DNA of 64,000 bases, from the NCBI GenBank assembly GCA_963720265.1, contig CAVRET010000002.1:264704-328703 (forward strand). The letters run 5' to 3'. A program made the position numbers and the translations under genes. Numbering within the stretch: position 1 is the stretch's first letter; each line of letters opens with the position of its first letter. The DNA is from an uncultured bacterium (lineage in GTDB: Bacteria > Patescibacteriota > Saccharimonadia > UBA4664). This document shows positions 26,086-45,514 of the stretch, piece after piece. The notes under the pieces are model-generated. The model made no database searches and was not told the DNA's origin. It worked only from the letters and a program-made list of their open reading frames with translations.

Positions 26086-26113
26086 AGAAAAATATAAAGA
26101 ATCTAATAATACC

Positions 26114-26206: not shown

Positions 26207-26723
26207 ACGCTTGCTGAACTCGGCTATAATACCGCGAACTTTCGTTTGTCTCAATACATTGGGCGGGGTCGGCCCGCCAGAGTCCGGCTCAACGAGCCTC
26301 ACTCCACCACGACCTCGTTGAACAATAGGAGCAACAAAGTAGACGACGAGTCCGGCGTAAGTAGCTTCAGCTACCTCCAGAGAGAGGCGCCAGGGTACCC
26401 CGGTTGATCGCCGCCCCAACGAGCGCTTGTATCGGCTCAGAGTTAAACAGTGGGGAATTCCCGCAACCCTCGCTGCAAGTTGCTCGTCCTGCTTGCCTCT
26501 AAGCGACCTTAGGCTAAACACGGCCACGAGCCCTATTGCAAGCGCCAGGCAAGCCACTGCGGTCAAGCCGGGCTCCCATTGGTAACATTCGACCGCAATC
26601 AGCAGTGCCTTCGCGTCTACACCGCACACACGTTCCCGGAGCCATCATCTCGATAAAGCCAAAACCCTTTCTTGCCTTTCATTTGAATGTCTGACTATAA
26701 TGGGCAAAAGGAGATTTTTCCAG

Positions 26724-27224: not shown

Positions 27225-27665
27225 TTACGTTGATTTACTCAAGGTGGTGATCACAAACGACACCACCGCGAACGACACAATCGCGACCACAATACCTATG
27301 ATAGCGTACAAGATCGTGTCCTTGGCCGCTGACACGTTCTTCGGGTCGCCATTCGACACCACATACCGCAGACCACCGATAATCAGGAAGATCACGGCCA
27401 CGGCGCCGATGATAAACACTAAGGTGTCGGCAATGGTCTGAAACGCACCCCCCGGGGCAAACAGGTCGTTACTCGTCCCCGCCGCCTGACCGCAGCCGGC
27501 GCCATTTGCAAGCGGTGTAGTGGTAACGTCACTGCTGCAAGTGCCGGCCAAGGCCACCGGTGCCACCACTGTACTCACTGCCAAGCTCGCAATACCAAAA
27601 CCGGACGCTAAAATAAGTGCCTGTAACATAGGGAAGATCTTTTTGCCCAATTTCGCGATACGCAT
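27225..27665 (-). CDS. small secreted two-TM pilin-like protein (T4SS pilin / TrbC-VirB2-like), paralog 1
   Basis: Signal peptide MRIAKLGKKIFPMLQALILASGFGIASLA. Two Cys in the mature N-terminal segment. TM1-loop-TM2 with IIGGLRYVVSNGDPKNVSAAKDTILYAIIG. The track ORF extends to 27746. Confidence 0.6.
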   Translation of the reverse strand: MRIAKLGKKIFPMLQALILASGFGIASLAVSTVVAPVALAGTCSSDVTTTPLANGAGCGQAAGTSNDLFAPGGAFQTIADTLVFIIGAVAVIFLIIGGLRYVVSNGDPKNVSAAKDTILYAIIGIVVAIVSFAVVSFVITTLSKST

Positions 27666-27770
27666 CTGAAGTGAGTACTCCTTCATGTTCAATCTATTAT
27701 AACGCAACCTTACGTCGACCCTACCATAAGCACTTTCACTTGGCAAACAACAGGGCCGCCATTCCGGCTA

Positions 27771-28085
27771 CTATGTGATGCTGTTGATGACGAAGTTCAC
27801 AATCGCCCAGGATACAATCGCCACCACCACGCCGATCGCCGCATACAAGATCGTGTCCTTGGCCGAGCCGGTCGCCTTTGGATCACCGTTCGAGAGCACG
27901 TAACGCAACCCGCCGACGATAATCATAATGACCGAAATCGACCCAACCAGATACACCAATACATCAGCGATCAGTCCAAAGGTGTGCGGCAAATCCGTTT
28001 TGGTGTTGCAAACACTCCCGCAAGCCTGCGTGAGCCCGCTGGAGATGGCACTGGTGGCGTCTGCCATGAGATGGAAAGCTATCAT
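27771..28085 (-). CDS. pilin-like two-TM protein, paralog 2
   Basis: ACGSVC Cys pair, IVGGLRYVLSNGDPKATGSAKDTILYAAIG. Confidence 0.6.
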   Translation of the reverse strand: MIAFHLMADATSAISSGLTQACGSVCNTKTDLPHTFGLIADVLVYLVGSISVIMIIVGGLRYVLSNGDPKATGSAKDTILYAAIGVVVAIVSWAIVNFVINSIT

Positions 28086-28101
28086 TTTTGCCTCTCTTCC
28101 A

Positions 28102-28434
28102 TTAAATATTTCCGCTTGTGGCCCCCGCGATAAACGTCACAATCGCGTACCCGGCGATTGCAACGCCCAGACCCACACAGGCGTACAGGATCGTTTCTCT
28201 GGCCGTACTGGTCTTCTTGGGATCGCCACCCGATAGCACATATTGCAGTCCACCCACAATAATAAAGATGAGCGCCAGCCCGCCCATGAGCTCCATCATG
28301 AGTGCCACGCCGTTTGCCACTGCCTGGCCGAGGTTTGCCGTACTGCACGGTACCCCGATGTCGCTGGCCGTAATGTTATACGGATTGCTGCTTTGCGAGC
28401 CGCAGGCCGCAGCTGCCGCCAGTAACCAATGCAT
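28102..28434 (-). CDS. pilin-like two-TM protein, paralog 3
   Basis: Cys pair (ACGS...PCST), IVGGLQYVLSGGDPKKTSTARETILYACVG. Confidence 0.6.
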   Translation of the reverse strand: MHWLLAAAAACGSQSSNPYNITASDIGVPCSTANLGQAVANGVALMMELMGGLALIFIIVGGLQYVLSGGDPKKTSTARETILYACVGLGVAIAGYAIVTFIAGATSGNI

Positions 28435-28437
28435 GCT

Positions 28438-28791
28438 CTAAAACCCCTGCGCTATAAACGTTATGATCGCATATGCCAGGGTAATGAGCACCAGTCCGGT
28501 GGCCGTATACTGAATAATCTCCCGAGCGCGCTTGATTCGGTCCGGCGCTCCCATCGACGTAATGTAAAAAATTGCCGCCAACAAGATAGTAATAATCGCA
28601 ATCGACCCGGAAACCACAATCAAAATCCGGACCGCGTTGCCAATTATTACCAGCACGCCACTGACGGCGGTTAAGGTAATCTGGCCGTTCGTACAGGTCA
28701 GCCCCGGCCCGGGCTGGTATAGGCTCGGCGGAAACGCACTCGTTGGAGCGCAGGCGTCCGCCAACTTAAACAATCCCAGCATCGGCCCCAT
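28438..28791 (-). CDS. pilin-like two-TM protein, paralog 4 (divergent)
   Basis: Cys pair (ACAPT...TCTNG). Degenerate loop IFYITSMGAPDRIKRAREIIQYTATG between two TM helices. Confidence 0.5.
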   Translation of the reverse strand: MGPMLGLFKLADACAPTSAFPPSLYQPGPGLTCTNGQITLTAVSGVLVIIGNAVRILIVVSGSIAIITILLAAIFYITSMGAPDRIKRAREIIQYTATGLVLITLAYAIITFIAQGF

Positions 28792-29244
28792 CTATAGAAC
28801 CCCTCCCGGCACCAAATAGTTCAGAATCGCAAACATGCACAGGAACAACACCAGTGCGATCAGTGCGTTAGTTAGACGGTCTTTGGCTGCCTTAACCTGG
28901 CTCGGATTCGCACCCGAGGTAATATACTGCACGCCGGCAATAATAATCATGAGCAACACCACCGCCGCCACCGCGCTGCTAAGCAGCTGTAAGACGTACC
29001 TTAGATAGACAATTATTGCTCCGCCGGTCGCTGCATCATTAGGAACGCCGATCCCTCCGTCGTCCGCCTTGCAGGTTTGCATACCCGGCACTATCGGCAG
29101 CGAAATCTCCACACAATCCGGAGCCGTAATGCCGGTCTGCTGACTTAGCGCCGATGCTAGGCTAGTGCCCGGCAGCGCTACCGAACCCAAGAGCGCCAGA
29201 TATCCCGCAACCAGCGCGTAACGTAACCGCTTCATGATCTGCAT
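28792..29244 (-). CDS. pilin-like two-TM protein, paralog 5, first gene of the minus-strand operon
   Basis: Signal peptide MQIMKRLRYALVAGYLALLGSVALPGTSLASA. Cys pair (DCVE...TCKA). IAGVQYITSGANPSQVKAAKDRLTNALIA. Confidence 0.55.
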   Translation of the reverse strand: MQIMKRLRYALVAGYLALLGSVALPGTSLASALSQQTGITAPDCVEISLPIVPGMQTCKADDGGIGVPNDAATGGAIIVYLRYVLQLLSSAVAAVVLLMIIIAGVQYITSGANPSQVKAAKDRLTNALIALVLFLCMFAILNYLVPGGVL

Positions 29245-29269
29245 TGTACCGATCAGCTCAGGTAAAAGT

Positions 29270-29313
29270 CAAAATGCTTACGCTATCAAAAACGCTAATG
29301 GTATAATGCAGCC
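29270..29313. promoter_or_regulatory. candidate divergent promoter region; -35/-10 for the giant gene with a near-leaderless start
   Basis: TTACGC-N18-TATAAT, with the -10 box at 29303-29308 only 5 nt before the ATG at 29314. This implies a leaderless or very short-leader mRNA. Confidence 0.35.
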
Positions 29314-32300
29314 ATGTTCCGGAGGTGGTTCGCACTAGCACTCATGGCGTGGGCAACGCTGTCCACGGTCATTGGCTATGCTATCACTCCTACCACCGTT
29401 CTAGCTGCCACCGAAAGCTATGCCTACAACGGCAACGCTAACGATCCGGGTATCAATGCCACTGGCACGTTAAATGCCACCTTTATCCTTATCACGAATA
29501 CCCAATACACATATGACAGCTCTGGTAATTGTCCGGCCCACTACACGCTCAGCCTCAACACCGCCGGAGCCAGTTCCGGTGTCATCAGCACCACATCAAC
29601 CAATGGCAACTGCACTCCTAATCCGAATCTCAGTGGCAACGTGGCCATTACCGGTACGGCAGCAGGTGGTGGTGGCGCCGGTGGTGGCACCGCGGGCAAA
29701 GACACATACGCCTTCAACGCCAACGGTAACATCGCTGGTACAGGCGCGGTCAACGGCACCTTTACCACTAAAAATAACCTCAATTGGGATTACATCACCA
29801 CAAAGAACGGCTGTACCGTTGATTACGACATTTCAACCGTTACCACCAATGGCAATAACTCCAATGGTCAGATTGTCACAACCTGGAACCCAAATAAGGC
29901 CTCCTGTGCACCAGCCACCAGCCTCAACGGCACAATCACCATTTCCGGCCAAAAGTCCGGTGCAAACGGCGCCGCCACCGGCACCTACAATCTAGCCCAA
30001 GACGCCCAAAGCATCACCGCCTCGGGCTCCTATCCAACCTGCCTCGGTGCCGGCAACAACGGCAACGGCGCAAACCCCGTCTTTAATTACAGCTCGGCCG
30101 ACCAGCAATACGAATTTACCGTTCCCGCCAACCCGGCTGACCCCCAGACGCAGGATGTAACCGCCACCATTACCAACGTGTCCAAAATTGGCAGTACCAC
30201 GAATTATACCGGTACCCTCACTATTCCCGCACCTTGCAACTTCACCGGCAATATCACCATCAATGCCACGGCGAACACCGCCGCCGTGCCAAACACTTCG
30301 GGCGCCGGTAGCAATGCGCCGCCCTGCAACGCCGGAGACCTCAGCTGGCTCATTTGCAGCATCATCAACTTACTCGTCAATGGCATCGACGCGCTTGTCT
30401 CAAGCATTCTCATTCCGTTTATTCAGGTCCAACCACTGTCCACGACCGCCACGATCACCAATGCCGACGGCACTACCAGCGTTGTGGCCAGCCCCACCTA
30501 CAGCATCTGGGGCAAATTCCGCGATCTAGCCTCTGTGTTCTTCATATTGATATTCTTCATCATCATATTCGGCACGGCCATCGGGATGGATAATTATACG
30601 GTTAAAAAGATATTGCCACGCCTAGTCGCCGGCGCCATCCTCGTGCCGTTGTCGTGGTATATCTGCGCGGTCGGGATTGATATCGGCAATGTATTGGGCT
30701 TCGGTCTGCTTAAACTGTGCCAAGCAGTCATACCAAACCCAACTATTGATATTGGCACACCGCTGGCACAAATCTTCTTCGGGATCGGCGGCGCCATTGT
30801 CGTTACTCTGGCCACCGTCGCCATCACCACCATTGGCTTGGGCGTCTTGCTCACCATCGCTTTCGCCGTGCTGGCCGCCATTCTCACCCTCGTGCTGCGC
30901 AAAATTCTCATTATCTTGTTTGTGGTCTTAAGCCCATTTGCGCTCCTGGCCTGGATTTTGCCCAACACCGAAAAGCTCTACAAACAATGGTGGACCACGC
31001 TGACGCGCCTTATCCTGATGTTCCCGCTCATCATGCTGCTCATCGAGGCTGGGCGAATCTTTTCGCTCACAGCCGGCTCAGCGCTCGCCGGCGGCAACAT
31101 TGCTCTCTTCGGGGTCCACCTTCGACTGGCCGCCGCTCCGGGCACCGGGGCTCTGCAGCAGTCTGCGGTGCCGTTCTTGCAGCTCACTGGTCTTTTCTTG
31201 CCATTGGGCGCCGTTCCCTGGACCTTCAAGTGGGCCGGGGGTGCCATGGCCTTCGGCGCCGGTATGATTGCTCGCGGCCGCAAAGCCGCCGACAGCCGCT
31301 TTGGCCGCAGCTCCGACTTTGCCAAAGGCCGGGCCGAAGAGCGCCGCCGTAAAGCCGTTATTAACGCCAATGATCCCAATATCAATGGTGTCCGGCGCGC
31401 CTTTAACCGCGCCCGCAGCGAAACGGGTGGTGGCTTTGCCGGCATGGGGCGAGGAAATCGTATCCAGCAAGCGGCCGCCCAGGATGCCTTTGCCAAAGCC
31501 ACCAAGACCACGGCCACAGCCGACGCCGGAAGACGAGCTAGAGACGGCGCACTGCCGGGCGAGACGCCGCAGCAGCGCATCCAGGCCGAAACCCAAGCCG
31601 CACTCACTGGGATCGCCGACGAGCGTGCGGGCCGCCAGGGCATCCGCAATAACGTTGCCGCTGGTGCCGTCAGTGGCCGGCCGACCGACCTTGCGGCTGC
31701 CGGTAACGCCATCGCTGGTCAGCGTTACCTCGCCGGCGTTCAAACCGCTACACTCGGTGAGGCCAAGCGCATCGGCACCGACCGTGCGGTCATTCGCGGT
31801 GCCCAAGTACGTCCCATAGCACCCCAAGTCATGCAGGAACACGCCCAGTACGTTGAGGAGGGCAATCAGGCCCAACTCCGCGGCGAGATGCTGGGGTCAG
31901 TAAGCACCGTCAGACAAATTGATCAACGCAATGTCGCCACCGGTCGTGCCGCCAACCGGAATGAAGCCGCCGACCTGCGCGTTCGGGACCAGTCATTAGC
32001 CTCCTATGACAAAGCTCGCGAGGACGTGGCCGGCCTCTACGGCGCCGCCCTAGCCCGCAATGCCGTCACCCAGGCCGGCGGTGGTCGCGAATCTGTTGCC
32101 GATCTCACCGACGCGGGCATGCTTGCAGAACGCGAAAAACAAGCCCATGCCAAGGCCGAGCGCCAAGAACGTGTCAGCATCCGCAACACACCGGGCTACG
32201 CCGAAACTGCCGACGAGGTGCTCGAAGCCGAAACCGAGCACGCCAGAGAGTCGCTTGGCAAAGCAGCCAACACTCGTCGAGCCGCTCGCGAGGTCGGACG

Positions 32301-35300
32301 CCGCACCGGTGAAACCACCGAGCAGTTCCTAGCCAACGACTACGGCACAACCGAGCGCGCCACGTTTGACGCTGCTAATAAGCGCATCCAAACCGGTCAG
32401 GCTTCCCGCGAAGACGCCGACGAAAACTACCGAAAGACCATGGGCCCTACCGCCTACCGAGCGGCAATGGGCATTCCGGCAGGTGCACCTCTCAACCCTG
32501 CCCAAGAAGCCGCCGCACTTGCCATGACAGCTGAGGACATTTACCGGGCCAATAACGGTATGCTTCCAGGGACTCCTCTCACTCCAGCTCAGCAGGCTGC
32601 CGCCCAAGCTGCGGTTGCAGGCAATTACGACAATATGCAAATGGCCGCCTCACGCGAGGCTGCCCGCCGCACCGCCAACGCCGACGTCGGCAAATCGCTA
32701 TCCGTCCTCAACGACGAAGCCGGCAGCAACCTACCCGGCGGCACTACCAGTCAGCAATACCGGCAGCAATCCAACTATGAAGAAACCAAAAAGCTCGGTA
32801 CGGCATCCGGAAACGTTCAAGGCGTACTCGAGGCCCAAGCCGAAGAAGCCGCCCGCGACAATGCCGCTCCCGGCAGCTTCAATGCGCTCGCCGAAGCCGG
32901 GCTCCGCTCTTCCCGGGCCGGCCGTATTAATAGCAGCACCAAGGCTGCCGAAGCCTTTGGCACTGAGCAGGGAACCATCAACGCCAATGCCACCCGCACT
33001 GTCACCGCCGCCCAAGCTGCCGGCCAAGCTGAGCGCGCCACCGAGCAAAAGGCCTCGGCCGACAACGCCACGTCGCAAGAGAAGCTCGCCGAGTCACAGA
33101 TCGCCGAAGAGCAGCTCGCACGGCAGCTCTTTGGTGTTGCACCGGGTGTGGCAGTCACGCCGGTCCAGCTCGCCGCCGCCCGGGCCCAGATGCGCGAAAA
33201 CTCGGCTCGCAAGGCTGGCGCCGAGGCCAGAGATACACAGGCTTCTGAACTTGCCGGCACTGCTGCGGCAGTCCGAGGGCGCGAGCAGGCCATTGACCGC
33301 GAAATCAGGCGAGAGGCCGACGCCACCGGCCGGGTGCTAACAACACCCGAGGCTGAGCGCAATATCGTAAATAATGCCGCCGCCGTTGCCGCCGAAAAAG
33401 CCGAGAAAGAAGCCGCCGGCAAGGCCTCCGCCGACACCGGTACGCTCGGAGAACGCGAAAACGCCCTAAACGATGAAATTGCCAGGGTGTACAACGAGAC
33501 CGGCGCCTATCTCACCCGTGACCAAGCCGAGCAACGGCTCGCCAACGCTGCTGCCGAAAAATCCCGCCTCGATGCAGTTACAGCCGAGCGTAAAACTGTG
33601 GCCGAAGAGTTTGCCGCACAGGAGGGCCACCAGCAAGCAGTTGACGAAGAGATCGCCCGTGCCGCCGCCGCCGGTGCACCAATCCCGGCCGGAGCCACCC
33701 AACGCGCCCAAGCCGCCCGCAATATCAGCCGCAACATACGCGAAGACGTCCGCCACGAAGGCACAAGGTCTCAGCTCACAGCCGCCAGCGGGGCACGGGG
33801 CAAAGGCGAGGAGCGTGAGCGTGCAGTTCAAAAACAAATTGACGATGCTGCCGCTGCTGCCGCTGCCGGTACCGGCGTCGCTATTGACCGCGCGACCGCC
33901 CAGCGTAATCTGATTCATAATGCTTCCGAACAAGGCCGGATCGAGGCCGCGGATTCTGAGCGCAAGAAAATCGGTGATGCCGAAGGTGTTGCCGGCAGTG
34001 AGGCCACTGAGGCGGATGACGAAATAGACCACATGGGCCGCGAGGAAGTGCGCACCGAGCTCGCAAGAGCCGGCCTGGCCAACACGCTCGAAAACCGCCG
34101 CCGAGTTGCCCTCGAGCGGGTACGACGCCGCGGAGTTAGTGCCTCCTCTCGTCTCGCCGGCAACAAGCGCACCGGTCAAGCCGCTGAAGAGCGCGGCATC
34201 ATTGAGAATCGCGATCAATGGATACAGCGCGAAATCGATGAAGGACGCGTCCCAACCACCATTCTTGATCCCGCCAGCGGGCTGCGCCGCGCCACCAACG
34301 CCGCTGAAAAACAGGCCGCCGCCATCCGTAATCTCGAACGCCGCGCCGCCACTGCCGCCACCAAAAAAGCCGGCGATAACTACAACAAAGGTAACGCCGA
34401 AGAATTGGGCATCACCCAAGGCTATGATGCTGCCCTCAAAGAGCAAGCCGGCAACAACCGTCCGACTTCAGCTCAACTCCGCGCCGCTCGCCTCGCCCTG
34501 GCCGATCAGGAGATCAAAAAGACCGCCCGCGAAACGAGAGAGAACCTCTCGAGTAGCGTCGGCCAAACGAGAGAAGAAAATATCGCCGCAGACGCTGATG
34601 CGGCGGCCATAGAAGCCGACCTCAAAGCCCAGGCCGCAGCCGACGCCGCGGCTGCCAGGGCCGCAGGATTCGCAGGGGCGCGCGCTCGTCGCGTCACGAG
34701 ACAGCAAGTTCAATCTGAAATGCTGCGCCGCCAACGCCTAGCGGGCGCCGAAACCGGCGCCCGCGCGCAAGCTACCAAAAGCGGTCGCACTGAGGCGCTC
34801 GTGCAAGCCGCCCGCGTTGCCACTCCCGCCGTGCCCGCTACTACTACCACTCCCGCCGTGCCCACAGGGGCTCCGGGCTCCGGACGGCCGACTGCCGAGC
34901 AACGCCGCGACTCTGCCGTCCGAGAGCAGATCAAGGTAGCCGCTAATGAATCAGCATCGGTCACAGCTCACGATAATCCAGCCGTTCCAAAGATTGCGCC
35001 AACTCAACAATTCGCCGACTCTTTGCGCAACCGCCAAGAACGAGAAAACGAAAAAGTCATCGATGACGCTATGACTGACGCCGCCGCTGGACTGAGAATA
35101 GATGTGCCCGGTCGCGGCAGGATCCCACTCAAAGACGTCCAATACTCGAAGGAAGAAATGGACGCCGTCCAGAAGATTCTCGATGATGCCTTTACCACTG
35201 GTGACATTCCGACCGCCTTAGCGGCCATGGATCACCTTGCATCGGGTAGTGCTAGTGCACAAGCCCGGCTCGTAGATCGGTCCGACCCTAATAGTGTGGT

Positions 35301-35979: not shown

Positions 35980-35998
35980 CAATGCGGGGCGCTAGCTT

Positions 35999-36775
35999 AT
36001 GAGCCAATACAAAGTACCCCAAAACGTCGAGGCCGAAGACCACATCCTCGGGCCGCTCACCTTCAAGCAGTTTATCTACGGCTGCATCGGGTTTGGTTGG
36101 GCCATCGTTTGCTTTGGGCTCTTTAAGGACATTCCCGCGCTCATGTTTGTGGTCGGGTTTCCGCCCACACTGCTGTTTCTGCTGCTCGCATTCTATACCC
36201 GCGACGGGCAAAACTTCGAGCAAATATTGCTGGCAATGGTTGGTTTCTTTGCCTCCGAGCGGCGTAGACTATGGGTTAAGGAAGCCGTGGCAGTCACATT
36301 TGAGGTCGAGCCGGCCAAAATTATCAGTGAAACTACCCAACGCAACCCCGCCGAAGTTCGCAGCCAGCTTGAGCGGCTCTCTAATCTCATAGACTCGCGC
36401 GGCTGGAACCTCGACCCACGATCCGACCATTCGGAAATGCAGCAGTTTCTGCCCACCACGAGCCACAGCGACCGTCTCGTTGCTCCACCACCGGCAGTAC
36501 CCCAGCCCGACGAACCCCGTGCCGACATGCTCGACCTAACAAATAGCCCGCTCGCGCAAAATCTTGCCCAACTCCTAGCCGATGCCGCCGGTGAAGCCAA
36601 ATCTCAAGCAATCGACAGCATCGGCGCCAACCCGCGCCGAGCTCGCGAGTTAAGCACAAGCGGCGTGACACCTGGAGCCCAGGCCGATATACTAAGACTA
36701 GCCACAGAAGGCGGCGACCTGACGGTCGCTAGACTCGCCGCCCAAGCTAATCGAGTGAACCGAGATGCCAGCTAA
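35999..36775 (+). CDS. PrgI-family / VirB3-like small T4SS membrane protein
   Basis: N-terminus MSQYKVPQNVEAEDHILGPLTFKQFIYGCIGFGWAIV matches the PrgI pattern (Y-V-P...G-L-T-x-x-Q-F) with a 2-TM hairpin. Sits directly upstream of VirB4, as in Gram-positive T4SS. Confidence 0.55.
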   Translation: MSQYKVPQNVEAEDHILGPLTFKQFIYGCIGFGWAIVCFGLFKDIPALMFVVGFPPTLLFLLLAFYTRDGQNFEQILLAMVGFFASERRRLWVKEAVAVTFEVEPAKIISETTQRNPAEVRSQLERLSNLIDSRGWNLDPRSDHSEMQQFLPTTSHSDRLVAPPPAVPQPDEPRADMLDLTNSPLAQNLAQLLADAAGEAKSQAIDSIGANPRRARELSTSGVTPGAQADILRLATEGGDLTVARLAAQANRVNRDAS

Positions 36776-37499
36776 TACCGAAGCCAAGGAAGGCAAAAGC
36801 ACCCAAAATACCCTCCTTATCTCCGAGGTCAAGGACGGGGTAGTTGTTATGCGCGACGGCAGTTTGCGCGGTGTGATTTTGGGCTCAGCCATTAATTTCG
36901 ACCTCATGAGCACAGAGGAGCAGGAAGCGACCGAATACGCCTACCAAGGCTTCATCAACTCGCTCCATTTCCCAGTCCAAATTTCCATCAAGAGCAAAAA
37001 AATCGACATCGCACCCTATGTCGAGAAGCTACAGGCACAGCGCTCCGAACTCTCTAATGAACTACTCGGCTCGCTCATGGACGACTACATCTTAAACATC
37101 AAGGCCTTAGTCGAGCAGGTTAACATCATGGACAAGCAGTTTTATATCACGGTGCCGTTCTTCCCTCCCATGGCCGTAAAGAAAAACACCAACCTGTTTG
37201 CCGAGCTCAAAGCCGCCTTTGAGCCAACACCGATCATCATCGTCTCAGAAGAAGACTTCCGCAATTACAAGCAAGAATTAACTGAGCGCATGCAGTTGGT
37301 CGAATCCGGCCTTACCCAAATGGGCATCCGCGCCTTGGCCCTCGGCACCCAGGAGCTGGTTGACCTGTATTATTCCTGGTACAACCCCGACGTCGCAGCC
37401 AACGAGAAACTCATTGAAGTCGGTCAAATCACCACGCCGGTTGTCACCAAAGGCGAAGGTTCCGCCCCGCGCGGCCCACTGCCAGGGGCTCCAATCTAA
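36765..37499 (+). CDS. VirB4/TraC-family N-terminal domain encoded as a separate ORF
   Basis: LISEVKDGVVVMRDGSLRGVILGSAINFDLMSTEEQEATEYAYQGFINSLHFPVQI resembles the conserved N-terminus of Gram-positive VirB4 homologs (PrgJ/TcpF/TrsE). The stop TAA overlaps the next ATG (TAATG at 37497-37501). Confidence 0.5.
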   Translation: MPANTEAKEGKSTQNTLLISEVKDGVVVMRDGSLRGVILGSAINFDLMSTEEQEATEYAYQGFINSLHFPVQISIKSKKIDIAPYVEKLQAQRSELSNELLGSLMDDYILNIKALVEQVNIMDKQFYITVPFFPPMAVKKNTNLFAELKAAFEPTPIIIVSEEDFRNYKQELTERMQLVESGLTQMGIRALALGTQELVDLYYSWYNPDVAANEKLIEVGQITTPVVTKGEGSAPRGPLPGAPI

Positions 37500-39397
37500 T
37501 GGCCTTTGGACGCAAACACGACGCCGGCTTCCAGGCCAACCAGCTCGAGGAAATGGCACGTCTCCAGGATCAGCACGAGGCCGAGCTCATCTATCGCCAG
37601 GGTATTGTTACCATGCGCGACCTCATCGCACCCCCTAGCCTTGAGATCGAGTCCGGCTACCTCAAACTCGGCAAGCGCTATTGCAAAACCGTCTACGTCT
37701 ACGGCTACCCACGTCAGGTCTTTACCGGCTGGCTGTCGCCGATCATTAACCTCGACGAAATTATCGATATATCACTCTTCATTTATCCGGTTGAAAGCCA
37801 GGTTGTTTTAAGCAACCTGAAGAAAAAAGTCGGCCAGATGGAAGCCAGCTACCAGATCAACGAAGAAAAGGGGAGGGTGCGTGACCCCGGTCTCGAAGCC
37901 GCAATCCAAGACGCTGAAGAACTCCGCGACAAACTGCAAGTGGGGGAGGAGCGCTTTTTCCGTTTCGGCCTCTATCTCACCATGTATGCCGACAACCTTG
38001 AAGACCTTACCCAAGTTTCGCGAAAAATCGAGGGCATTTTCGGCCAATCACTTGTCTATACCAAGCCTGCCACCATGCAAATGGAGCAAGGTTTCAACTC
38101 CTCAATTCCGCAGGCAACCGACCAGCTTCAGATTTATCGCAACATGAATACCGGCTCGCTCTCCACCAGTTTCCCGTTTACCTCAGCCGAGTTGTCTCGC
38201 AACGAAGGCATTCTCTACGGCCTCAACCGCCACAACAACGGCCTCGTGCTGTTTGACCGCTTCTCGCTCGAAAACGCCAACATGGTCGTATTTGCCAAGT
38301 CCGGCGCCGGTAAATCCTTTGCCATCAAACTTGAAGCCCTGCGCAGTCTCATGATGGGCGTTGAAATCATCGTTATCGACCCCGAAAACGAATATGAGCG
38401 ACTGTGTGAGGCCGTTGGCGGCACCTACTTGCGCCTCAGCCTGGCATCTGCCACCCGCATCAACCCATTTGATCTGCCCCGCGTGTTTGACCAGGACGAG
38501 GCTGATAACGCACTCCAAGCCAATATCATTTCGCTCCACGGTCTGCTCCGACTTATGATGGGCGGTGCCACCGTCAACAACACCACCGGCGCCACTACCT
38601 CAACCCCGCTGACGCCGGCTGAGGACGCCGATCTCGATCTCGCCATTATCAATACCTATGCTAGAGCCGGCATCACCAAAGACCCACTCACGCATGGCGC
38701 CACGCCGCCCACAATGAACGACCTCTATAACACTTTGGCCTCGATGTCGGGCAACGGTCCATCCCTCGCTGCCCGCTTGCGCCAATACACCACCGGCACC
38801 TTTTCCGGCATTTTCTCAGAACAGTCCAATGTTGAGATCAACAATCCGTTTTTGGTCTTCAACATCCGCGACCTCGAAGATGAACTCCGCCCAGTCGGCA
38901 TGTACATCGTCCTCAACTATATCTGGAACAAGGTCAAATCTGACCGCCGCCGCCGCCTTCTCATCGTGGACGAGGCCTGGCAGCTCATGAAGTACGACGA
39001 TTCCGCTAACTTCATGTTCTCACTCGCCAAACGCGCTCGCAAATACGCCCTCGGCCTTACGACGATCTCGCAGGACGTTGAAGACTTCTTGGCCAGCAAA
39101 ATGGGCCGCGCCGTGGTTGCCAACTCGTCACTACAGCTCCTGCTCAAGCAAGCACCGTCCGCCGTTGACATCGTCGCCGATACCTTCAAGCTCACCGATG
39201 AAGAGAAAAAACGCTTAAGCCAATTCCCGGTCGGGGAGGGCCTATTCTTCGCCGGCCTTAACCACGTCATCATGCGTGTTCTCGCTTCAGACAACGAGGC
39301 GCAGCTCATTTCCACCACCCCGGCAACTCCGCAGAACGCGTCCGCCGACTATCAATCCGAACCATCGCAAACAGACCAAGAACAGCCCGCATCATAA
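37499..39397 (+). CDS. virB4: VirB4-family T4SS ATPase, C-terminal (middle plus ATPase) portion
   Basis: Walker A VVFAKSGAGKSF, Walker B RLLIVDEAWQLM, and the TTISQDVEDF motif. 632 aa, 876 aa combined with the upstream ORF. Confidence 0.85.
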   Translation: MAFGRKHDAGFQANQLEEMARLQDQHEAELIYRQGIVTMRDLIAPPSLEIESGYLKLGKRYCKTVYVYGYPRQVFTGWLSPIINLDEIIDISLFIYPVESQVVLSNLKKKVGQMEASYQINEEKGRVRDPGLEAAIQDAEELRDKLQVGEERFFRFGLYLTMYADNLEDLTQVSRKIEGIFGQSLVYTKPATMQMEQGFNSSIPQATDQLQIYRNMNTGSLSTSFPFTSAELSRNEGILYGLNRHNNGLVLFDRFSLENANMVVFAKSGAGKSFAIKLEALRSLMMGVEIIVIDPENEYERLCEAVGGTYLRLSLASATRINPFDLPRVFDQDEADNALQANIISLHGLLRLMMGGATVNNTTGATTSTPLTPAEDADLDLAIINTYARAGITKDPLTHGATPPTMNDLYNTLASMSGNGPSLAARLRQYTTGTFSGIFSEQSNVEINNPFLVFNIRDLEDELRPVGMYIVLNYIWNKVKSDRRRRLLIVDEAWQLMKYDDSANFMFSLAKRARKYALGLTTISQDVEDFLASKMGRAVVANSSLQLLLKQAPSAVDIVADTFKLTDEEKKRLSQFPVGEGLFFAGLNHVIMRVLASDNEAQLISTTPATPQNASADYQSEPSQTDQEQPAS

Positions 39398-39487
39398 GCG
39401 TTTTGAATTCCTTCGGATAAGGCATTACAATTTTACTAACCGCTTTAGTGGTTACACCATGATGTGTGAGGTGAGGTTAGCGTAAGT

Positions 39488-42382
39488 ATGGCTGACACGA
39501 GGGATTCCGAACGACTCCGCCGCAGTTCCAGCCGTGGCGCCGGCTTCAATGGTCCGGGCGGTTCAACTCGCCCCGGCACCAGCGGGCCAGGTGATACCAC
39601 ACGTCCGGCCAACCGCAGTGGATTCTCCAGTTCAACTTCTTCCCGGCCCGTCGGTGGCGTAAAGGGTGGATTTGCGCGCCCGTCGGGCACCGGCGGAAGT
39701 CCGCTCGCGAGCACAAACGCCGGCAGTGGCACCAACCTTTCTGACCGCCAGGAAGAACGGTTCAAGCAACTCGACGCCGAAGCTAAGGCCAAACAAGCTA
39801 CTGAGGATGCCGCCCGTGTCGGCCGTAACGAGGAAAAAGACGCAGCTGAATCGGCCAGAAAAATGGCCGGCTCCAATTATGAAAACGCCAGCAATGGCAA
39901 TGCCAAGGCCGGCGAAGAAGCCCGCGACGCCGAAAAAGACGCCGCCTCCGCCCTCAAATCCGGCAGCAAAGCCACCGGAATCAACATGGGCCGCCCCTTA
40001 AGCGACCAGGACTGGGCGCGCCACAGCTCAAATGCTGAGCGCGCCGCCGCCGGCACGACCGGCCAGAATGGTCTCGCCATGAGAACCAACACCGGAGCCG
40101 GTGGTGGCTTCGACCGTGTGCGGGGATTTTTCCGAAGGCACCGTACCGGCACCGTAGTCGGCACCAGCGCCGGAGGCCTATTCCTAGCCGGAATCATGGC
40201 ATTCGCGCTCCTCATTCCGCTCCAGCTCCTCGACATGGCCAATATGATGCTCCACGCCGCCCAGCAAGACGTTGAGCATGAAGTTGATAAGGCCGGCCTC
40301 AAAATTCTCCAAAAAATGATCCAGTCACGGGAAAAAGATCCCGGCGGCACGTTGCAGCACACCGGCCATCCCATTGCCGATGCCATTCACAACGTCACGA
40401 TTAAAAAATTTAACGATGACCTGTACAAAGACGGCATCAAGATAACCTTCGATAAAAGTGGCCGCCTCACCGGCATCGAGTACCTCGACGACTCAAAAAA
40501 CATCGACCTCTCCGACGCCTCATTCACAGCCCGCCGCAGCGCCATCAAAGATTTGGTCTTTGAACGCATCTCGCCGTGGCGGCCGCTGGCTCGCATTCTC
40601 TATACTCGGCGCCTCCAAGCCTGGGCCAACGTATCTTGGCGATTTTGGCCCAAGGAGAAAGTTGCCAACATTGCAAAGCTGATGTGGGAAAAAGTCCGTC
40701 AGGGCGCAACCGTTAATGAAATACAGCAAGAAACCGGTGAATCCGAGCAACAGGCCGCTCAGGAGCAAGCTGCCGCTCAATCCAGTGGCGAAACCGACGC
40801 CACCGGCGATATTGGCGAACTGGAGCAAAAAGTAGATGGCGGTGAACCAAAAACACAGGCCATTAGAGACGTTGTCGCCTCAATTAAGAGTCATCCCGCC
40901 TTTGGGATTACGGGTATGGTTGCGCTCATCTGTATCGTTGAGCAAATCGCCAACAGAGCCGCCACCCATGGTTACGTCCAGCGCGCCGACCTCCTCATGC
41001 GGATGGGCAACTTGATACCAACCATGGCCTCTCAGCTCGTTACCGGCGACGGCATCCTGCAAACCTCTGCGGGTGGCTTCAACATCGACGAGCTCAACCA
41101 GGCCATGCAAGCGTTCCAGGGTGACCCCAAAGCCCCATCAGATTCTCTCGACCGCCTCAGCTGGGCCCAGTCCGCCTCAGCCAGACGCGACATGGGCCTG
41201 CCGGTCAACAGCAACCCCAAGAGCCCCAACTTCAATCCCGACTTTAATGAAGCCGCCAATCCCGACGGCAACGCGCTCGTCAACGTCATTGGCGAGTTCA
41301 CATCCGTATTTAATTCCATTCCAGGCGCCAGCTTCACCTGTAGTATTCTCACCGGCGTATTTGGCACCATTGTCCAGATTGGCCTGCAGATTGTTGAGTT
41401 TGCCGTCAACATTGTCGACGGCGAAACTGAGGAAATCCTTTCCAGCGCTGCCGACGTTGGCATTCAAACCGCGCTCTTTGGCTGGGTCTTACCCAAAGTA
41501 CTGGAGGCCGGCGCCGGTCTTGCGGTTACCGGCAATGAGAATCCCGTTGATATGTTCAACAACGGCCAAGCGGGCTTAAGCCTAGCTTCCGAGCAATTTA
41601 TGCGCTCCATGGGCGGCCGCGAGCTTACCAACACCGAAGAAGCCGATATCAACAATTCAGCCCAAGGCGACCAGTTTAACTACGCCGAATCTCAAGGCTG
41701 GCGCTACAATCTGTTTGCCATCTCCAACCCCAATTCCTTGCTCGCACGCACGGTCATCAATATTCCGGACACGCCCGGTCAGGCCCTAGCCGACATGATG
41801 AACGTCCCGAGTAGCGTCACGCACGGCATGGCCACCGTCTTTCTCGGTATCAGGCCGGCCAGTGCCGATGCCAACAATATAAACCCCTACGGTTGGCAAA
41901 TGTATGGCTTCACCGACGCCGAAATCGACAAATATGACCCCATTGCCAACGAGGATTTCCTGACCCAACCAGTCAAAAAACCGGACGGCACCTACACCAC
42001 CCGTCTCGCCATGCTGGGCGACCCATCGCACTATGTGCCAACCCAAACCGACGATCCCGACCAACAGGATCTCCTCCATTGTTTCGTTGATAAATACTCT
42101 GAGCAGCACAACGGCGACGGCTTTGCCAACCCGAATCCCGGAGATGTCTGCGACGGCCTCGGCCTTGCCACTACCCGCGACGGCAATGAGGTGTTCAATC
42201 CAACCGACCAGCAAATTGTTAACACCATCTACTGCCAGAACAACAATGTCTGCAATCTCCAGCCCAACGACGACTTCCTGCGCTACCGTCTCGAATTGCT
42301 CTACACCGACGTTGTGAGCTCAATGGACTGCGAAACCACAACCGTTGATTGTTTTACCGGAAACGACCCCTATGATGATTAA
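39488..42382 (+). CDS. large polytopic membrane protein of the T4SS-like locus (disordered G/S/R-rich N-terminus, ~4-5 TM helices, large soluble domains)
   Basis: 964 aa. N-terminal ~210 aa are low-complexity (RGAGFNGPGGSTRPGTSGPG...). TM helices at VVGTSAGGLFLAGIMAFALLIPLQLL, ITGMVALICIV, FGTIVQIGLQIVEFAVNIV, ALFGWVLPKVLEAGAGLAV. Confidence 0.5.
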   Translation: MADTRDSERLRRSSSRGAGFNGPGGSTRPGTSGPGDTTRPANRSGFSSSTSSRPVGGVKGGFARPSGTGGSPLASTNAGSGTNLSDRQEERFKQLDAEAKAKQATEDAARVGRNEEKDAAESARKMAGSNYENASNGNAKAGEEARDAEKDAASALKSGSKATGINMGRPLSDQDWARHSSNAERAAAGTTGQNGLAMRTNTGAGGGFDRVRGFFRRHRTGTVVGTSAGGLFLAGIMAFALLIPLQLLDMANMMLHAAQQDVEHEVDKAGLKILQKMIQSREKDPGGTLQHTGHPIADAIHNVTIKKFNDDLYKDGIKITFDKSGRLTGIEYLDDSKNIDLSDASFTARRSAIKDLVFERISPWRPLARILYTRRLQAWANVSWRFWPKEKVANIAKLMWEKVRQGATVNEIQQETGESEQQAAQEQAAAQSSGETDATGDIGELEQKVDGGEPKTQAIRDVVASIKSHPAFGITGMVALICIVEQIANRAATHGYVQRADLLMRMGNLIPTMASQLVTGDGILQTSAGGFNIDELNQAMQAFQGDPKAPSDSLDRLSWAQSASARRDMGLPVNSNPKSPNFNPDFNEAANPDGNALVNVIGEFTSVFNSIPGASFTCSILTGVFGTIVQIGLQIVEFAVNIVDGETEEILSSAADVGIQTALFGWVLPKVLEAGAGLAVTGNENPVDMFNNGQAGLSLASEQFMRSMGGRELTNTEEADINNSAQGDQFNYAESQGWRYNLFAISNPNSLLARTVINIPDTPGQALADMMNVPSSVTHGMATVFLGIRPASADANNINPYGWQMYGFTDAEIDKYDPIANEDFLTQPVKKPDGTYTTRLAMLGDPSHYVPTQTDDPDQQDLLHCFVDKYSEQHNGDGFANPNPGDVCDGLGLATTRDGNEVFNPTDQQIVNTIYCQNNNVCNLQPNDDFLRYRLELLYTDVVSSMDCETTTVDCFTGNDPYDD

Positions 42383-43763
42383 ACTTGCCAGACTGGCCGC
42401 CGTGCTCATACTTAGCATCGCAGGAATAGTGTTGCCCGCAGGCCAGGCGCTCGCTATTCTACCCGAAGACCAGCACTGCGCCCTCGACGGCTATGCCTGC
42501 ACATATTACCTGCAAGATAGTTGTGATTCTACCGACACACCGGATCCTACCGCCACTGGCTCTTCCGCATCCGCCAGCTGTTGCAACAGCTCCAGCCTCT
42601 CCACACAACAGTTCGGACCCGGCAACTTGCCCAGCTATATCAAGCAGCCCTACAACGGTATCTTTACCGCCGCCGGCCAGAAGTATAACGTTGACCCCGC
42701 TGTGCTTGTCGGCATTTTTTACGATGAACAGTATGGTTACCAAAACGCCGTCAGCGCGTTCAATCAGCATGAGATGCCCAATCCACCCCCGCCCTATGGA
42801 TCCGGCCCTGCATGGGCCACGAGCCCAACCGGCGCCCAAGGACCGTTCCAGTTTGAACCCGCAACTTGGGCGGAAGATGGCGTTGACGGTAACGGCGACG
42901 GCATCAAGGATCCCAACGATCTGACCGATGCCGCATTTGGTGCCGCCAACAAACTTGGTAGAGATGGCGCCACCATTCCCGAGACCCAGTCCAAGATTGA
43001 AAACGCCGCCACCGCCTACTCCGGCGGATACCCACAGTACTCCCAAAATGTCTGGACCATCTTCCAAAAGATAAAACAAGACGAAGGCGGCTCAGCCGTC
43101 ACCACGCCGGCCACTAGTGAGGTCCCAGCCCCGTCCGGCAGCACCTGCGGCACAACCACCACCGGCGCCAACATTTACCAAGATCCGTTCCATAACCAAT
43201 CCGGCGTCGGCGCCAGCCGGGTTGATTCCGGCGCCGACCTCTACGCCATCAGCGCCCCGGTTCCCGTCTACGCCATCGGCGATGGCAAAATTGACATCGC
43301 CACCGCTCACGGCACGTTTTATCCGCCAAATCCCGGCTGGATATCATACACGCTCACTGATCCGGCCGGCGCCGCCTACAACAAGGTCGTCTACGTTTCC
43401 GAAGGCTGTCCACCCCAGCCGGACATCATCCCCAGCCCCACCGATCCCCATCCGGCCGTTACGTCCAATACCTTGTTGTGCTACATGCAACCGTCCAGTA
43501 TCGAAATGGGCTGGGCCATGAACGACACCGAACAGCTCGCCATGGCCTACGGTACCTATGTTGAAAGCTACGCCACCATCTACGGTCAAAACTTCACCGA
43601 AATGCTCTACAGCCTCGGCCTGACGGTTAAGGAATGCTACGATCATCCTGGTTCCACCTACCGCTTCAACCCACCGCCACCTGCGCCGCCGGTACCTGCA
43701 AGCCTGCCGCCGGCCTGGATACCCAATCCCGATATCACCAAAGAAGGACCAAACGCATGTTAG
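42372..43763 (+). CDS. secreted cell-wall hydrolase, lytic transglycosylase (SLT-like) domain (VirB1/TcpG-like)
   Basis: Signal peptide MMIKLARLAAVLILSIAGIVLPAGQALA. SLT-like catalytic block GIFYDEQYGY...GAQGPFQFEPATWAE...DPNDLTDAAFGAANKL. A C-terminal ~200-aa domain is uncharacterised. Confidence 0.6.
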   Translation: MMIKLARLAAVLILSIAGIVLPAGQALAILPEDQHCALDGYACTYYLQDSCDSTDTPDPTATGSSASASCCNSSSLSTQQFGPGNLPSYIKQPYNGIFTAAGQKYNVDPAVLVGIFYDEQYGYQNAVSAFNQHEMPNPPPPYGSGPAWATSPTGAQGPFQFEPATWAEDGVDGNGDGIKDPNDLTDAAFGAANKLGRDGATIPETQSKIENAATAYSGGYPQYSQNVWTIFQKIKQDEGGSAVTTPATSEVPAPSGSTCGTTTTGANIYQDPFHNQSGVGASRVDSGADLYAISAPVPVYAIGDGKIDIATAHGTFYPPNPGWISYTLTDPAGAAYNKVVYVSEGCPPQPDIIPSPTDPHPAVTSNTLLCYMQPSSIEMGWAMNDTEQLAMAYGTYVESYATIYGQNFTEMLYSLGLTVKECYDHPGSTYRFNPPPPAPPVPASLPPAWIPNPDITKEGPNAC

Positions 43764-43782
43764 CATATCGGAGAGACCGAAA

Positions 43783-45222
43783 ATGAACCCAAACGCCACG
43801 CCTCAGACCTTAAACCTTCGTGCGCTCATGCTAGCAGTCGGCGGCGCCGTGCTGTTCTTGCTTATCATCTTCTTCGCCATCCGGTTCTTCACCATTGGCC
43901 AGCTCGACATCACAACCAATAGCAGCAACAATTCCATTACCGTTGCGCGCGCCAATGTGGAAAGCCAACCCAGCGGTTTCCCCAAGAAAGCCAAGGGAAA
44001 TCTCTCGCTCTCCCTAAACGCCGGCGAGTACATCGTTGATGTCCAGGGCAACTCCGTGGCCAGCTCGCAAGTCATTGCGGTCACGGCCCACAGTACAGCC
44101 TCCGTCAACATTAGCCCGCCAAATGCAACGGGAGTTGAGCCGGTCACATTCGACAATCCGGTCGACTTCAAAGCCAGTGCCACCCAATTGGTTTACCTCA
44201 ACTCAAACGACGCTAGCGTAAACGAAATCTCAGCGGGCAACGCTGCCACCAAGTTCGGCGCCAGCTATGGTTTCCAAACAGTCCAATGGGCCGACCCCAC
44301 GTTTGGCGTCGCCCAAGACGGCAACGGCAAGCTGTATCTTATCGACGACGGCACCATCAGCCCGCTGAACACCCCGGTCGAGGGCCAAGACGTTGTCTTT
44401 GCCGTCAGCTCCGACCGCACCATTTTTCTAGCCGATGACAACAATGTCTACAGCGGTCACGCCACCGGCGGCTTCAAGCAAATCTATAGCCGACGGCCCG
44501 AAGGCACATCGCTGGCCGCAGGTCCCGGCGGCAAGGTGGCTATTTTTGACGGCGGCGAAAATGAGGAGGACGAAGACACCGGCAATCACGACAAAACCTC
44601 CAGCGACGTTTCCGACGCCGGCCTCATCATAGTCGACAGTGAAGGTAATTCGGTTGAAAAAGACATCGATCCGGTCGACGTCGCTTGGTCGCCAAGCGGC
44701 AATTATCTAGCCGTCAGCACGCAGTCCGGCAGCACGGTACTAAACACCTCACTCGCCCAGATTGCCACCATCCCACAGGCCAACTTTGGCAGCGCCGTCT
44801 GGCTCGACGACAACGTGCTCTATTACAAGCTCCAAGATCAACTTTGGGCCTATAACATGAATGCCGAAGAAGCTCACATCATTGCCAATATGCCGCTTGG
44901 TGAAGCCATTCAGGATCTCAGCCTGTCGACCGACAACGCCTATATATACCTCAGTACCCAGGATGCCAGTGGCAACGTCGCGCTCCGCCGTGTGCCGTTG
45001 CACGGTCAGGGTACGTCAGAGGTGGTGTTCAATCTGCAAGACATCCTGCCGCAATCCGCCGGCGACTACAACTTGGGCCTCACGAACTTTAATGGAACCC
45101 CTACTGTTATAGTCACGCCAGTGGACGGAGTAGCCTCGCAAACGGCGTTGGCTGAAGCCACGCAACAACTTCAATCCGACGGCTTCAATCTAGGCCAGAT
45201 TAATGTCGCACTCAGTCCGTGA
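43783..45222 (+). CDS. single-pass membrane protein with extracytoplasmic beta-rich (PD40/TolB-like beta-propeller) domain
   Basis: N-terminal TM LMLAVGGAVLFLLIIFFAIRFF. PD40-like motif DVAWSPSGNYLAVSTQSG. 479 aa, GGAGAG ribosome-binding site upstream. Confidence 0.45.
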   Translation: MNPNATPQTLNLRALMLAVGGAVLFLLIIFFAIRFFTIGQLDITTNSSNNSITVARANVESQPSGFPKKAKGNLSLSLNAGEYIVDVQGNSVASSQVIAVTAHSTASVNISPPNATGVEPVTFDNPVDFKASATQLVYLNSNDASVNEISAGNAATKFGASYGFQTVQWADPTFGVAQDGNGKLYLIDDGTISPLNTPVEGQDVVFAVSSDRTIFLADDNNVYSGHATGGFKQIYSRRPEGTSLAAGPGGKVAIFDGGENEEDEDTGNHDKTSSDVSDAGLIIVDSEGNSVEKDIDPVDVAWSPSGNYLAVSTQSGSTVLNTSLAQIATIPQANFGSAVWLDDNVLYYKLQDQLWAYNMNAEEAHIIANMPLGEAIQDLSLSTDNAYIYLSTQDASGNVALRRVPLHGQGTSEVVFNLQDILPQSAGDYNLGLTNFNGTPTVIVTPVDGVASQTALAEATQQLQSDGFNLGQINVALSP

Positions 45223-45514
45223 GGCTCCCAATCCTGACCGCAAGTCGCGTGCCGTCCAACTGAGTAGCGGCCAGCAGTTCAAGTTGGCGCAATCTCAGCT
45301 CACTTGCCACGCTCGCATTCGGTGTCACCAGCTTGAGCACGCCCTGGTGCAAACTGCGCGCCCGCACCTGGCCTGGATACCGTGCCTCCAGCCACGCCTG
45401 CACGGTTGAGAGCACATCAGCCCGGTCGAACCCCAATTCACGGCGTTTGCGCTCAAAATAGTCGGCCTCAAGCATGTGACACCTCACTTGGCGGCATCGT
45501 ATGTCCAGTCTCAA
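45212..45514 (-). CDS. DUF721 domain protein (DciA-like helicase-loader family), in the recF-downstream position
   Basis: ~90-100 aa basic protein (LEADYFERKRRELGF...VLKLVTPNASVASELRL) in the conserved dnaA-dnaN-recF-DUF721 synteny. The true start is probably the internal Met at 45475. Confidence 0.5.
   Translation of the reverse strand: MRLDIRCRQVRCHMLEADYFERKRRELGFDRADVLSTVQAWLEARYPGQVRARSLHQGVLKLVTPNASVASELRLRQLELLAATQLDGTRLAVRIGSLTD

Follow-up and report, generated by a model that had tools for sequence, protein, structure and literature searches.

The 64-kb stretch of contig CAVRET010000002.1 analysed here, called the window throughout, carries between positions 27225 and 45222 the genes of a type IV secretion system (T4SS)-like apparatus. 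This locus is very probably the resident chromosomal T4SS of Candidatus Saccharimonadia (Saccharibacteria/TM7, Patescibacteria), orthologous gene for gene to the essential genes SEML1_0004-0019 of Southlakia epibionticum ML1. Saccharibacteria are ultrasmall bacteria which live attached to other bacteria, and their T4SS is, to our knowledge, near-universal among them; no other T4SS is known to be essential to its carrier. The sequence supports a chromosomal, vertically inherited and non-mobile machine of the monoderm type and not an integrated conjugative element (ICE). A host-encoded, non-mobile apparatus had already been proposed by the sequence-only reading, an earlier interpretation of the same DNA, and this proposal is strengthened by the occurrence of the locus in the same slot in 80 genomes, by the lack of mobility genes within 64 kb, by a native composition and by a conservation of VirB4 which exceeds that of DnaA, DnaN and RecF. 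The additional suggestion of an undescribed variant had to be given up: the gene order has been published for S. epibionticum (PMC10633639) and the other features are described in PMC12102498 and PMC12857230. Because each feature that was found odd had already been described, the locus is regarded as a further member of a known system.

Gene order and conservation of the locus

The map of open reading frames (ORFs) showed a compact block of five small ORFs on the − strand (27225-29244) followed by eight divergently oriented ORFs on the + strand (29314-45222), the latter spaced by no more than 90 bp. All ORFs and coordinates of the sequence-only reading were recovered in this map, as were the flanks it had named, Hsp20 and tRNAs on one side and DUF721-recF-dnaN-dnaA on the other. 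The gene set that it had listed is real, although the 244-amino-acid (aa) ORF was missing from it. The 2221-, 964-, 632- and 479-aa products are identical to the protein calls on the NCBI/ENA contig, so the gene calls are not those of this analysis alone.

The locus was compared with that of S. epibionticum by means of the published gene table (Wang et al., 2023, Cell; PMC10633639), not by sequences. In this table SEML1_0001-0003 are dnaA, dnaN and recF, followed by small exported proteins (0004-0005), a lysozyme-like enzyme (0006), a 1113-aa protein ending in a DD-peptidase (0007), VirB4 (0008), a 293-aa protein (0009), PrgI (0010), a VirB6-like protein (0011), an NTF2-like protein (0012), a TrbL/VirB6 protein (0013), six pilins (0014-0019), Hsp20 (0020) and a tRNA-Ser (0022). 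The window is the mirror image of this order from dnaA to Hsp20/tRNA-Ser. A VirB4 of about 610-630 aa, an upstream partner of about 250-290 aa, a membrane protein of about 1000 aa and a muramidase-type enzyme are common to both. In the window five pilins are found versus six in S. epibionticum, and a single 2221-aa VirB6 versus two VirB6-like proteins of about 1000 aa which flank the non-essential NTF2-like gene. The hydrolase of the window is an SLT transglycosylase, whereas S. epibionticum has a phage-tail-lysozyme/glucosaminidase and a Cys proteinase; the 964-aa protein lacks the C-terminal DD-peptidase of its counterpart, and where S. epibionticum has PEGA/prealbumin-like exported proteins, the last slot of the locus is occupied by a beta-propeller-like protein. 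Transposon sequencing (Tn-seq) showed that all genes of SEML1_0004-0019 save 0012 are essential for epibiotic growth, and the pilins as well as the missing coupling protein and relaxase had already been remarked for this cluster (PMC10633639). By analogy with the Tn-seq result in S. epibionticum, the locus in the window may likewise be essential for epibiotic growth.

A one-genome-per-species scan with VirB4 yielded 538 confirmed relatives, of which the best 80 (65-89% identity) were used for locus counts. Nearly all of these 80 are metagenome-assembled genomes of Candidatus Saccharimonadia/Saccharibacteria. The shared order is Hsp20, the pilin array (−), VirB6 (+), PrgI, the 244-aa protein, VirB4, 6-8 kb of variable genes, recF, dnaN and dnaA; the synteny check suggested by the sequence-only reading thus found the locus beside recF-dnaN-dnaA and Hsp20 across the 80 related Saccharimonadia genomes examined. 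All window proteins were searched against these loci, many of which end at contig ends, with tblastn. Matches were obtained to the 244-aa protein in 77 of the 80 loci, to PrgI in 68, to VirB6 and to dnaN in 54 each, to recF in 51, to dnaA in 49, to the pilins in 30-39 and to Hsp20 in 25. VirB4 was conserved more than DnaA (41 of 41 loci), DnaN (51 of 51) and RecF (49 of 49), with a median gap of 20-29 identity points, although the choice of the loci by VirB4 similarity somewhat inflates the identity of VirB4 relative to its neighbours. In one locus (L008) VirB4 and Hsp20 are 87% and 88% identical to those of the window, while the three downstream genes are undetectable by tblastn. The conservation gradient is steep, being highest in the cytoplasmic ATPase, and the extracytoplasmic parts diverge beyond recognition. 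To judge from these sequences, the fastest divergence falls on the parts where it would be expected for a host interface.

Components of the apparatus

The features of the block are collected in the table. Scores are judged against the Pfam gathering scores and the NCBIfam cutoffs. Five pilin-like proteins, a VirB6-like giant, a PrgI/VirB3-like protein, VirB4 and a VirB1-like lytic transglycosylase had been proposed in the sequence-only reading, and all of them were confirmed by family matches: PF18895 for the pilins (four of the five above the gathering score), a TrwI profile match and TrbL in the orthologues for VirB6, PF12666 for PrgI, Pfam, NCBIfam conju_CD1110 and PDB 4ag5 for VirB4, and SLT_2 above the gathering score for the transglycosylase.

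Table. Coordinates of the T4SS genes in the window and the matches on which their assignment is based
Feature	Position	Strand	Basis
VirB2-like T4SS pilin paralogue 1, 173 aa	27225..27746	−	T4SS_pilin PF18895, E 2.3e-10, above gathering score
VirB2-like pilin paralogue 2, 104 aa	27771..28085	−	PF18895, E 5.5e-11
VirB2-like pilin paralogue 3, 110 aa	28102..28434	−	PF18895, E 2.3e-7
VirB2-like pilin paralogue 4, 117 aa, divergent	28438..28791	−	PF18895, E 2.5e-4, 21.5 bits (gathering score 26.6)
VirB2-like pilin paralogue 5, 150 aa, at the head of the array	28792..29244	−	PF18895, E 1.2e-9
Extended VirB6, 2221 aa	29314..35979	+	Family profile of the polytopic region; TrbL matches of orthologues
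PrgI/VirB3-like membrane protein, 258 aa	35999..36775	+	Pfam PrgI PF12666, E 3.3e-12
TrsD-like protein, 244 aa	36765..37499	+	NCBIfam TrsD/TraD, 1.5e-6, below cutoff
VirB4 ATPase, 632 aa	37499..39397	+	Pfam P-loop_TraG, AAA_10; NCBIfam conju_CD1110
964-aa membrane protein	39488..42382	+	Positional orthologue of SEML1_0007
VirB1-like lytic transglycosylase, 472 aa	42345..43763	+	Pfam SLT_2, 6.3e-7, above gathering score
Membrane-anchored beta-propeller-like accessory protein, 479 aa	43783..45222	+	Weak WD40/beta-propeller matches; transmembrane segment aa 15-33

The VirB4 ATPase contains the Walker A motif AKSGAGKS at aa 266. Its match to NCBIfam conju_CD1110 (360.6 bits versus a cutoff of 325) covers model positions 182-730 of 752, and about 180-280 residues of the canonical N-terminus are lacking. 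The best solved relative is the C-terminal domain of Thermoanaerobacter VirB4 (PDB 4ag5, E 3e-47). The NCBIfam and PDB matches would place the enzyme in the monoderm (MPF_FATA-related) VirB4 type. The stop codon of the 244-aa gene overlaps the VirB4 start by one base at 37499. In NCBIfam matches below threshold, several VirB4 models aligned with the 244-aa protein over their first 200-280 positions. An AlphaFold2 (AF2) model built with 61 homologues reached a predicted local distance difference test score (pLDDT) of 67, and the top 14 PDB matches in a fold search with this model were all TrwK/VirB4 (E 1e-4, template modelling score 0.38). Relatives of the protein bear the JGI name "VirB4 component" and the organism label Candidatus Saccharimonadia. 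TrsD has been described as a detached VirB4 N-domain (PMC12102498). On the strength of these matches and of the model, the 244-aa TrsD-like protein appears to be the detached N-terminal domain of VirB4, which would thus be split over two genes.

For the 2221-aa family, a profile of the polytopic part matches R388 TrwI/VirB6 (7o3v_F, E 1.4e-6), and Pfam TrbL PF04610 (TrbL/VirB6) is matched by 22 of 40 orthologues; the window copy itself gave no Pfam match. The protein begins with a signal or anchor and a Thr/Asn/Gly-rich ectodomain of about 340 aa, followed by the polytopic region (aa ~349-584) and by a tail, which consists of about 1200 aa of Ala/Arg/Glu/Gln-rich low-complexity sequence and a final part of some 320 aa whose composition is not of low complexity. 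The Ala/Arg/Gly-rich tail of this gene accounts for the GC-rich stretch at 31-35 kb. Conservation among relatives is confined to aa ~300-780, and the orthologues are usually 850-1400 aa long. The tail of about 1500 aa has no detectable similarity in other loci, except that aa 1898-2124 are weakly matched in L004. Two tandem VirB6-like genes occur in 13 of 54 related loci (including L002, L003, L005, L035, L037, L058, L059, L062 and L063); the window and its nearest relative (L001) have a single VirB6 gene of about 2.1-2.2 thousand aa. A fusion of two VirB6-like paralogues was considered as the origin of the 2221-aa gene and rejected, as there is one polytopic region only and the tail has neither transmembrane segments nor similarity to the relatives.

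Pilin paralogue 1 consists of two hydrophobic helices linked by a GGLRYVxSxGDPK loop. Paralogues 2-5 are 23-51% identical to it, with 51% for paralogue 2, and paralogue 4 keeps the two-helix layout in the pilin alignment. A promoter-like site is located at paralogue 5 (29272-29243, − strand). The pilins also match the Mbov_0395 pilin-like family of Mycoplasma ICEs (NCBIfam NF045849) below threshold at about 1e-7 (1.6e-7 for paralogue 1); conjugative systems of wall-less or monoderm bacteria are therefore not entirely devoid of VirB2-like proteins.

The three genes that follow VirB4 form a variable cell-wall module. A second polytopic protein had been noted at the first of these positions, and the 964-aa product is indeed a membrane protein: an N-terminal region of about 225 aa, poorly conserved and free of hydrophobic segments, is followed by three to four transmembrane segments with large loops. 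To this can be added that its family often ends in a cell-wall peptidase. A large ORF, typically of 800-1500 aa, directly follows VirB4 in nearly every related locus, and in most of them an ORF of 400-500 aa comes next. Among 51 positional orthologues VanY was found in 11, Peptidase_M23 in eight and CHAP in one, and the C-terminus of the family profile matches structures of DD-carboxypeptidases and M23 peptidases. The window copy has no Pfam match and no C-terminal cell-wall peptidase domain. The positional family thus swaps its C-terminal hydrolase module between VanY, M23, CHAP or none. A homologue search repeated with the alignment of the 51 positional orthologues gave no further sequences, and neither the 964-aa nor the 479-aa protein had a match when its sequence was searched directly against the PDB.

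The 472-aa transglycosylase is anchored N-terminally (transmembrane segment aa 12-30). Besides SLT_2 it matches SLT at 3.4e-4 (20.6 bits, just below the gathering score of 21.3) and, weakly, NCBIfam MltB_2; no family match was found for aa 253-472. The 479-aa protein had been read as a PD40-like anchored protein. The anchor was confirmed, whereas the Pfam PD40 model is not among the weak matches and the beta-propeller signal is weak and generic. The profile of its family (393 representative clusters) matches WD40/beta-propeller structures with E 1e-5 to 1e-2, and in 12 of the 80 loci the protein is found at the same last position, in front of recF. All three genes (39488-45222) diverge extremely fast, being undetectable by tblastn or 23% identical where VirB4 is 87% identical (L008, L002).

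The Patescibacteria VirB4 clade is sister to MPF_FATA (Quinonero-Coronel et al., 2025, Microb Genom; PMC12102498). The T4SSs of this clade contain TrsD, PrgI, VirB6, VirB1 and VirB2 components with pilin arrays of 2-11 genes; relaxases are near-absent, genes for the type IV coupling protein (T4CP) lie away from virB4, and dnaA, dnaN, rnpA and rpmH are found nearby (PMC12102498). They have been called newcomers to the T4SS superfamily (2025 review, PMC12857230). The window shares all components of this clade, and its long VirB6 tail is a lineage detail and no difference of kind. With the MPF_FATA conjugative T4SSs (pCF10 Prg/Pcf, pIP501 Tra, pGO1 Trs, C. difficile CTn2) it shares the CD1110-type VirB4, PrgI, TrsD and VirB6, membrane-anchored cell-wall hydrolases and the lack of an outer-membrane core; no Pfam or NCBIfam match to VirB7/VirB9/VirB10 or to the VirB11 ATPase was found in the locus. 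In contrast to these systems, the window has no T4CP, relaxase, oriT, recognisable VirB8-like protein (PrgL/TraM) or PrgB-type adhesin, possesses VirB2-like pilins which they lack, and is chromosomal and vertically inherited. The T4SSs of Rickettsiales, Bartonella and Anaplasma resemble the window in a VirB6 whose core carries very large hydrophilic extensions (PMC12857230) and in arrays of divergent VirB2 paralogues, which are thought to vary the host-facing surface (PMC12102498). Unlike the window, they belong to the diderm MPF_T type and possess VirB7-11 and VirD4. Because the parts differ in this way, the likeness is taken as convergent.

Mobility functions, composition and placement beside dnaA

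In the sizeable ORFs of the 64-kb window Pfam found no VirD4/TcpA coupling ATPase, relaxase, integrase or transposase domains, which agrees with the earlier statement that these functions are missing in and around the block. No Walker A motif was found in the ORFs without Pfam match, the two large ones of which encode 8- and 15-transmembrane proteins, and VirB4 is the sole T4SS-type ATPase found in the window. No direct repeats bracket the block, and the 3' end of a tRNA is not repeated in att-like fashion at the other border. A relaxase or VirD4 together with att sites, which had been named beforehand as the finding that would speak for an ICE, did not turn up within 64 kb. The Pfam matches among the other sizeable ORFs of the window are all to housekeeping genes (GroEL, phosphoglucomutase, Mur ligase, two FemAB, TsaD, Sua5, ValRS, glycosyltransferases, epimerase and UbiA). 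The GC content of the window is about 56%, which makes the locus a higher-GC example of the Saccharibacteria T4SS. The GC content at third codon positions (GC3) is 0.62-0.72 in the T4SS genes and 0.59-0.72 in the core genes, and GC and codon preferences do not depart from the range seen in the core genes at the flanks; the composition check proposed with the sequence-only reading therefore showed a match to the neighbouring core genes.

These results bear on the reading of the locus as a decayed ICE whose integrase, relaxase and coupling protein are gone. The tRNA genes 1-4.6 kb to the left of the block would fit such an origin, since tRNA genes are typical ICE targets. The ancestry of the T4SS in mobile elements of monoderms would also fit (PMC12102498). 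However, the missing att-like repeats, the native composition and the class-wide synteny effectively refute this reading, which retains hardly any probability. Moreover, the genes are all intact and tightly packed, slot and order are the same in dozens of species, VirB4 evolves slower than DnaA, and the orthologues are essential (PMC10633639). A reading of the block as chance ORFs was rejected on the same grounds.

A working apparatus for conjugation or DNA export, with relaxase, oriT and coupling protein elsewhere on the chromosome, is very unlikely. VirB4 is closest to the MPF_FATA conjugative ATPases (NCBIfam; PMC12102498) and the examined part is 64 kb of a genome of about 1.1 Mb. However, relaxases are found in only 103 Patescibacteria genomes and near virB4 in only 15 cases (PMC12102498), and none is present in the window. 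Furthermore, the growth essentiality observed in S. epibionticum (PMC10633639) is not expected of conjugation, and the class-wide fixed place beside dnaA argues against a transfer module.

Besides the choice of loci by VirB4 similarity, several points weigh against the assignment as a resident T4SS with the parts described above. A relaxase or a VirD4 homologue might be encoded beyond the 64 kb examined, and T4CP homologues remote from virB4 are a common finding in Patescibacteria (PMC12102498). A VirB8-like NTF2-fold protein (PrgL/TraM type) gave no sequence match and the locus has no spare ORF for it. The AF2 model of the core of the 964-aa protein, built with four homologues, was unusable (pLDDT 32.5). 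The link of the 244-aa protein to VirB4 comes solely from NCBIfam and the fold search, with sub-threshold scores and a moderate template modelling score; a profile-profile comparison of its family with the N-terminus of Saccharimonadia VirB4 was not significant, and PDB sequence searches with it gave no matches. Finally, no substrate is known for any Patescibacteria T4SS, and the role has been called "completely unknown" (PMC11665869).

The right flank (45212-50217) comprises a DciA-like DUF721 gene, recF, dnaN, an ORF containing only Clp_N, and dnaA, followed by rpmH-rnpA-yidC on the opposite strand. The arrangement of rpmH-rnpA-yidC divergent from dnaA-dnaN-recF fits an oriC region, and three DnaA boxes with one mismatch each are located at 50249-50336; over the whole window, 12 DnaA-box-like sites were counted versus 8.5 expected, which is not above chance. 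GC skew is negative on the + strand over all 64 kb, without a switch or cumulative extremum at dnaA/rpmH. In the closest metagenome relatives (L088, L086) the skew also keeps one sign on either side of dnaA, and lower-GC distant relatives show a small skew step there. The origin may not be where the gene order suggests, or the lineage may have an unusual strand bias. The claim that the locus abuts the replication origin is plausible from the gene order and the three DnaA-box-like sites, but it is not shown by the skew.

The DUF721 ORF (45212-45514, −) scores 22.1 bits with PF05258, just under the gathering score of 24, and is convergent with the 479-aa gene, their 3' ends overlapping by 11 nt. 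The 205-aa ORF between dnaN and dnaA (48125-48742, +) lies on the opposite strand and contains only Clp_N repeats (PF02861, E 2e-18); the S. epibionticum gene table has nothing at this slot. The left flank comprises Hsp20 (26700-27155) and four tRNAs within 22630-26206. A 562-aa surface protein (23021-24709, +) is encoded amid these tRNA genes, at a distance of about 2.5 kb from the T4SS. It is anchored at the N-terminus and, by a transmembrane segment, at the C-terminus; in between lie a Ricin-B lectin domain (E 1e-21), linkers of the Pro/Thr and Gly/Ser type and an FN3-like segment. This protein is a candidate host-binding adhesin. Farther to the left (20255-22431), a 457-aa ORF with five transmembrane segments (−, no family match) overlaps a 331-aa TPR ORF (+) by about 190 bp; one start call of this pair is probably wrong.

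Possible route and direction of transport

The VirB4 ATPase would consist of two polypeptides, with the 244-aa TrsD-like protein as N-domain and the 632-aa protein as motor, and would dock at the membrane via PrgI/VirB3 and the extended VirB6. VirB4 would power the extraction of the five divergent VirB2-like pilins and their polymerisation into a putative tube or pilus. The 964-aa protein, the SLT enzyme and the beta-propeller protein may open and scaffold a route through the peptidoglycan, either that of the epibiont or that of the host. Such a machine would not carry out relaxase-dependent conjugation; more likely it serves as a contact-dependent channel that links the epibiont with its host bacterium.

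As to direction, uptake of host macromolecules (nucleic acids or nucleotides) is tentatively preferred, and we infer that export of effectors is nearly as likely. For uptake, it is possible that the VirB2-type tube of a T4SS lacking both T4CP and relaxase brings nucleic acids or other cytoplasmic material of the host into the epibiont. The lineage-specific VirB6 tail of about 1500 residues, on either side of the membrane, would hypothetically take over the substrate handling for which other systems have a coupling protein. We lean towards import because the locus contains no coupling protein and because, in S. epibionticum, a distant T4CP (PMC12102498) and comEC (PMC11665869, PMC12857230) are both dispensable while the T4SS is essential. 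Further reasons are the precedents of the T4CP-less importer ComB of H. pylori (PMC11665869) and of Ced (PMC12102498), and a 2026 preprint on host-RNA feeding and tubular structures, which may be T4SS pili. ComB and the Ced system of Sulfolobales are relaxase-free DNA-uptake systems (ComB also VirD4-free) which move nucleic acid inward (PMC12102498, PMC11665869). They share no specific homology with the window beyond the common ATPase superfamily; the distant P-loop similarity of VirB4 to CedB (1.9e-12) is far below cutoff.

The same anatomy would also suit a T4SS that exports epibiont proteins into or onto the host, with substrates delivered via a distant VirD4 homologue or via Sec, as in Bordetella Ptl; this too is a possibility to be held tentatively. 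Effector delivery has been speculated on in the literature (PMC11665869, PMC10633639), T4CP homologues are encoded elsewhere in many Patescibacteria genomes (PMC12102498), and T4CP-less exporters such as Ptl and Brucella VirB exist (PMC12102498, PMC12857230). On the other hand, no T4CP, candidate effector or chaperone gene was found in the locus or the 64-kb window, no effector is known for any member of the system, and the non-essential distant T4CP of S. epibionticum, beside an essential T4SS (PMC12102498), does not favour export by this route.

If uptake of host material by this T4SS holds true, it would explain why the system is essential in organisms unable to make nucleotides. The window adds no new kind of system, but a higher-GC example with lineage details, namely a single 2221-aa VirB6, a VirB4 with an apparently separate N-domain gene, a beta-propeller accessory protein and a conservation gradient, the last of which is useful for comparative work on host specificity.

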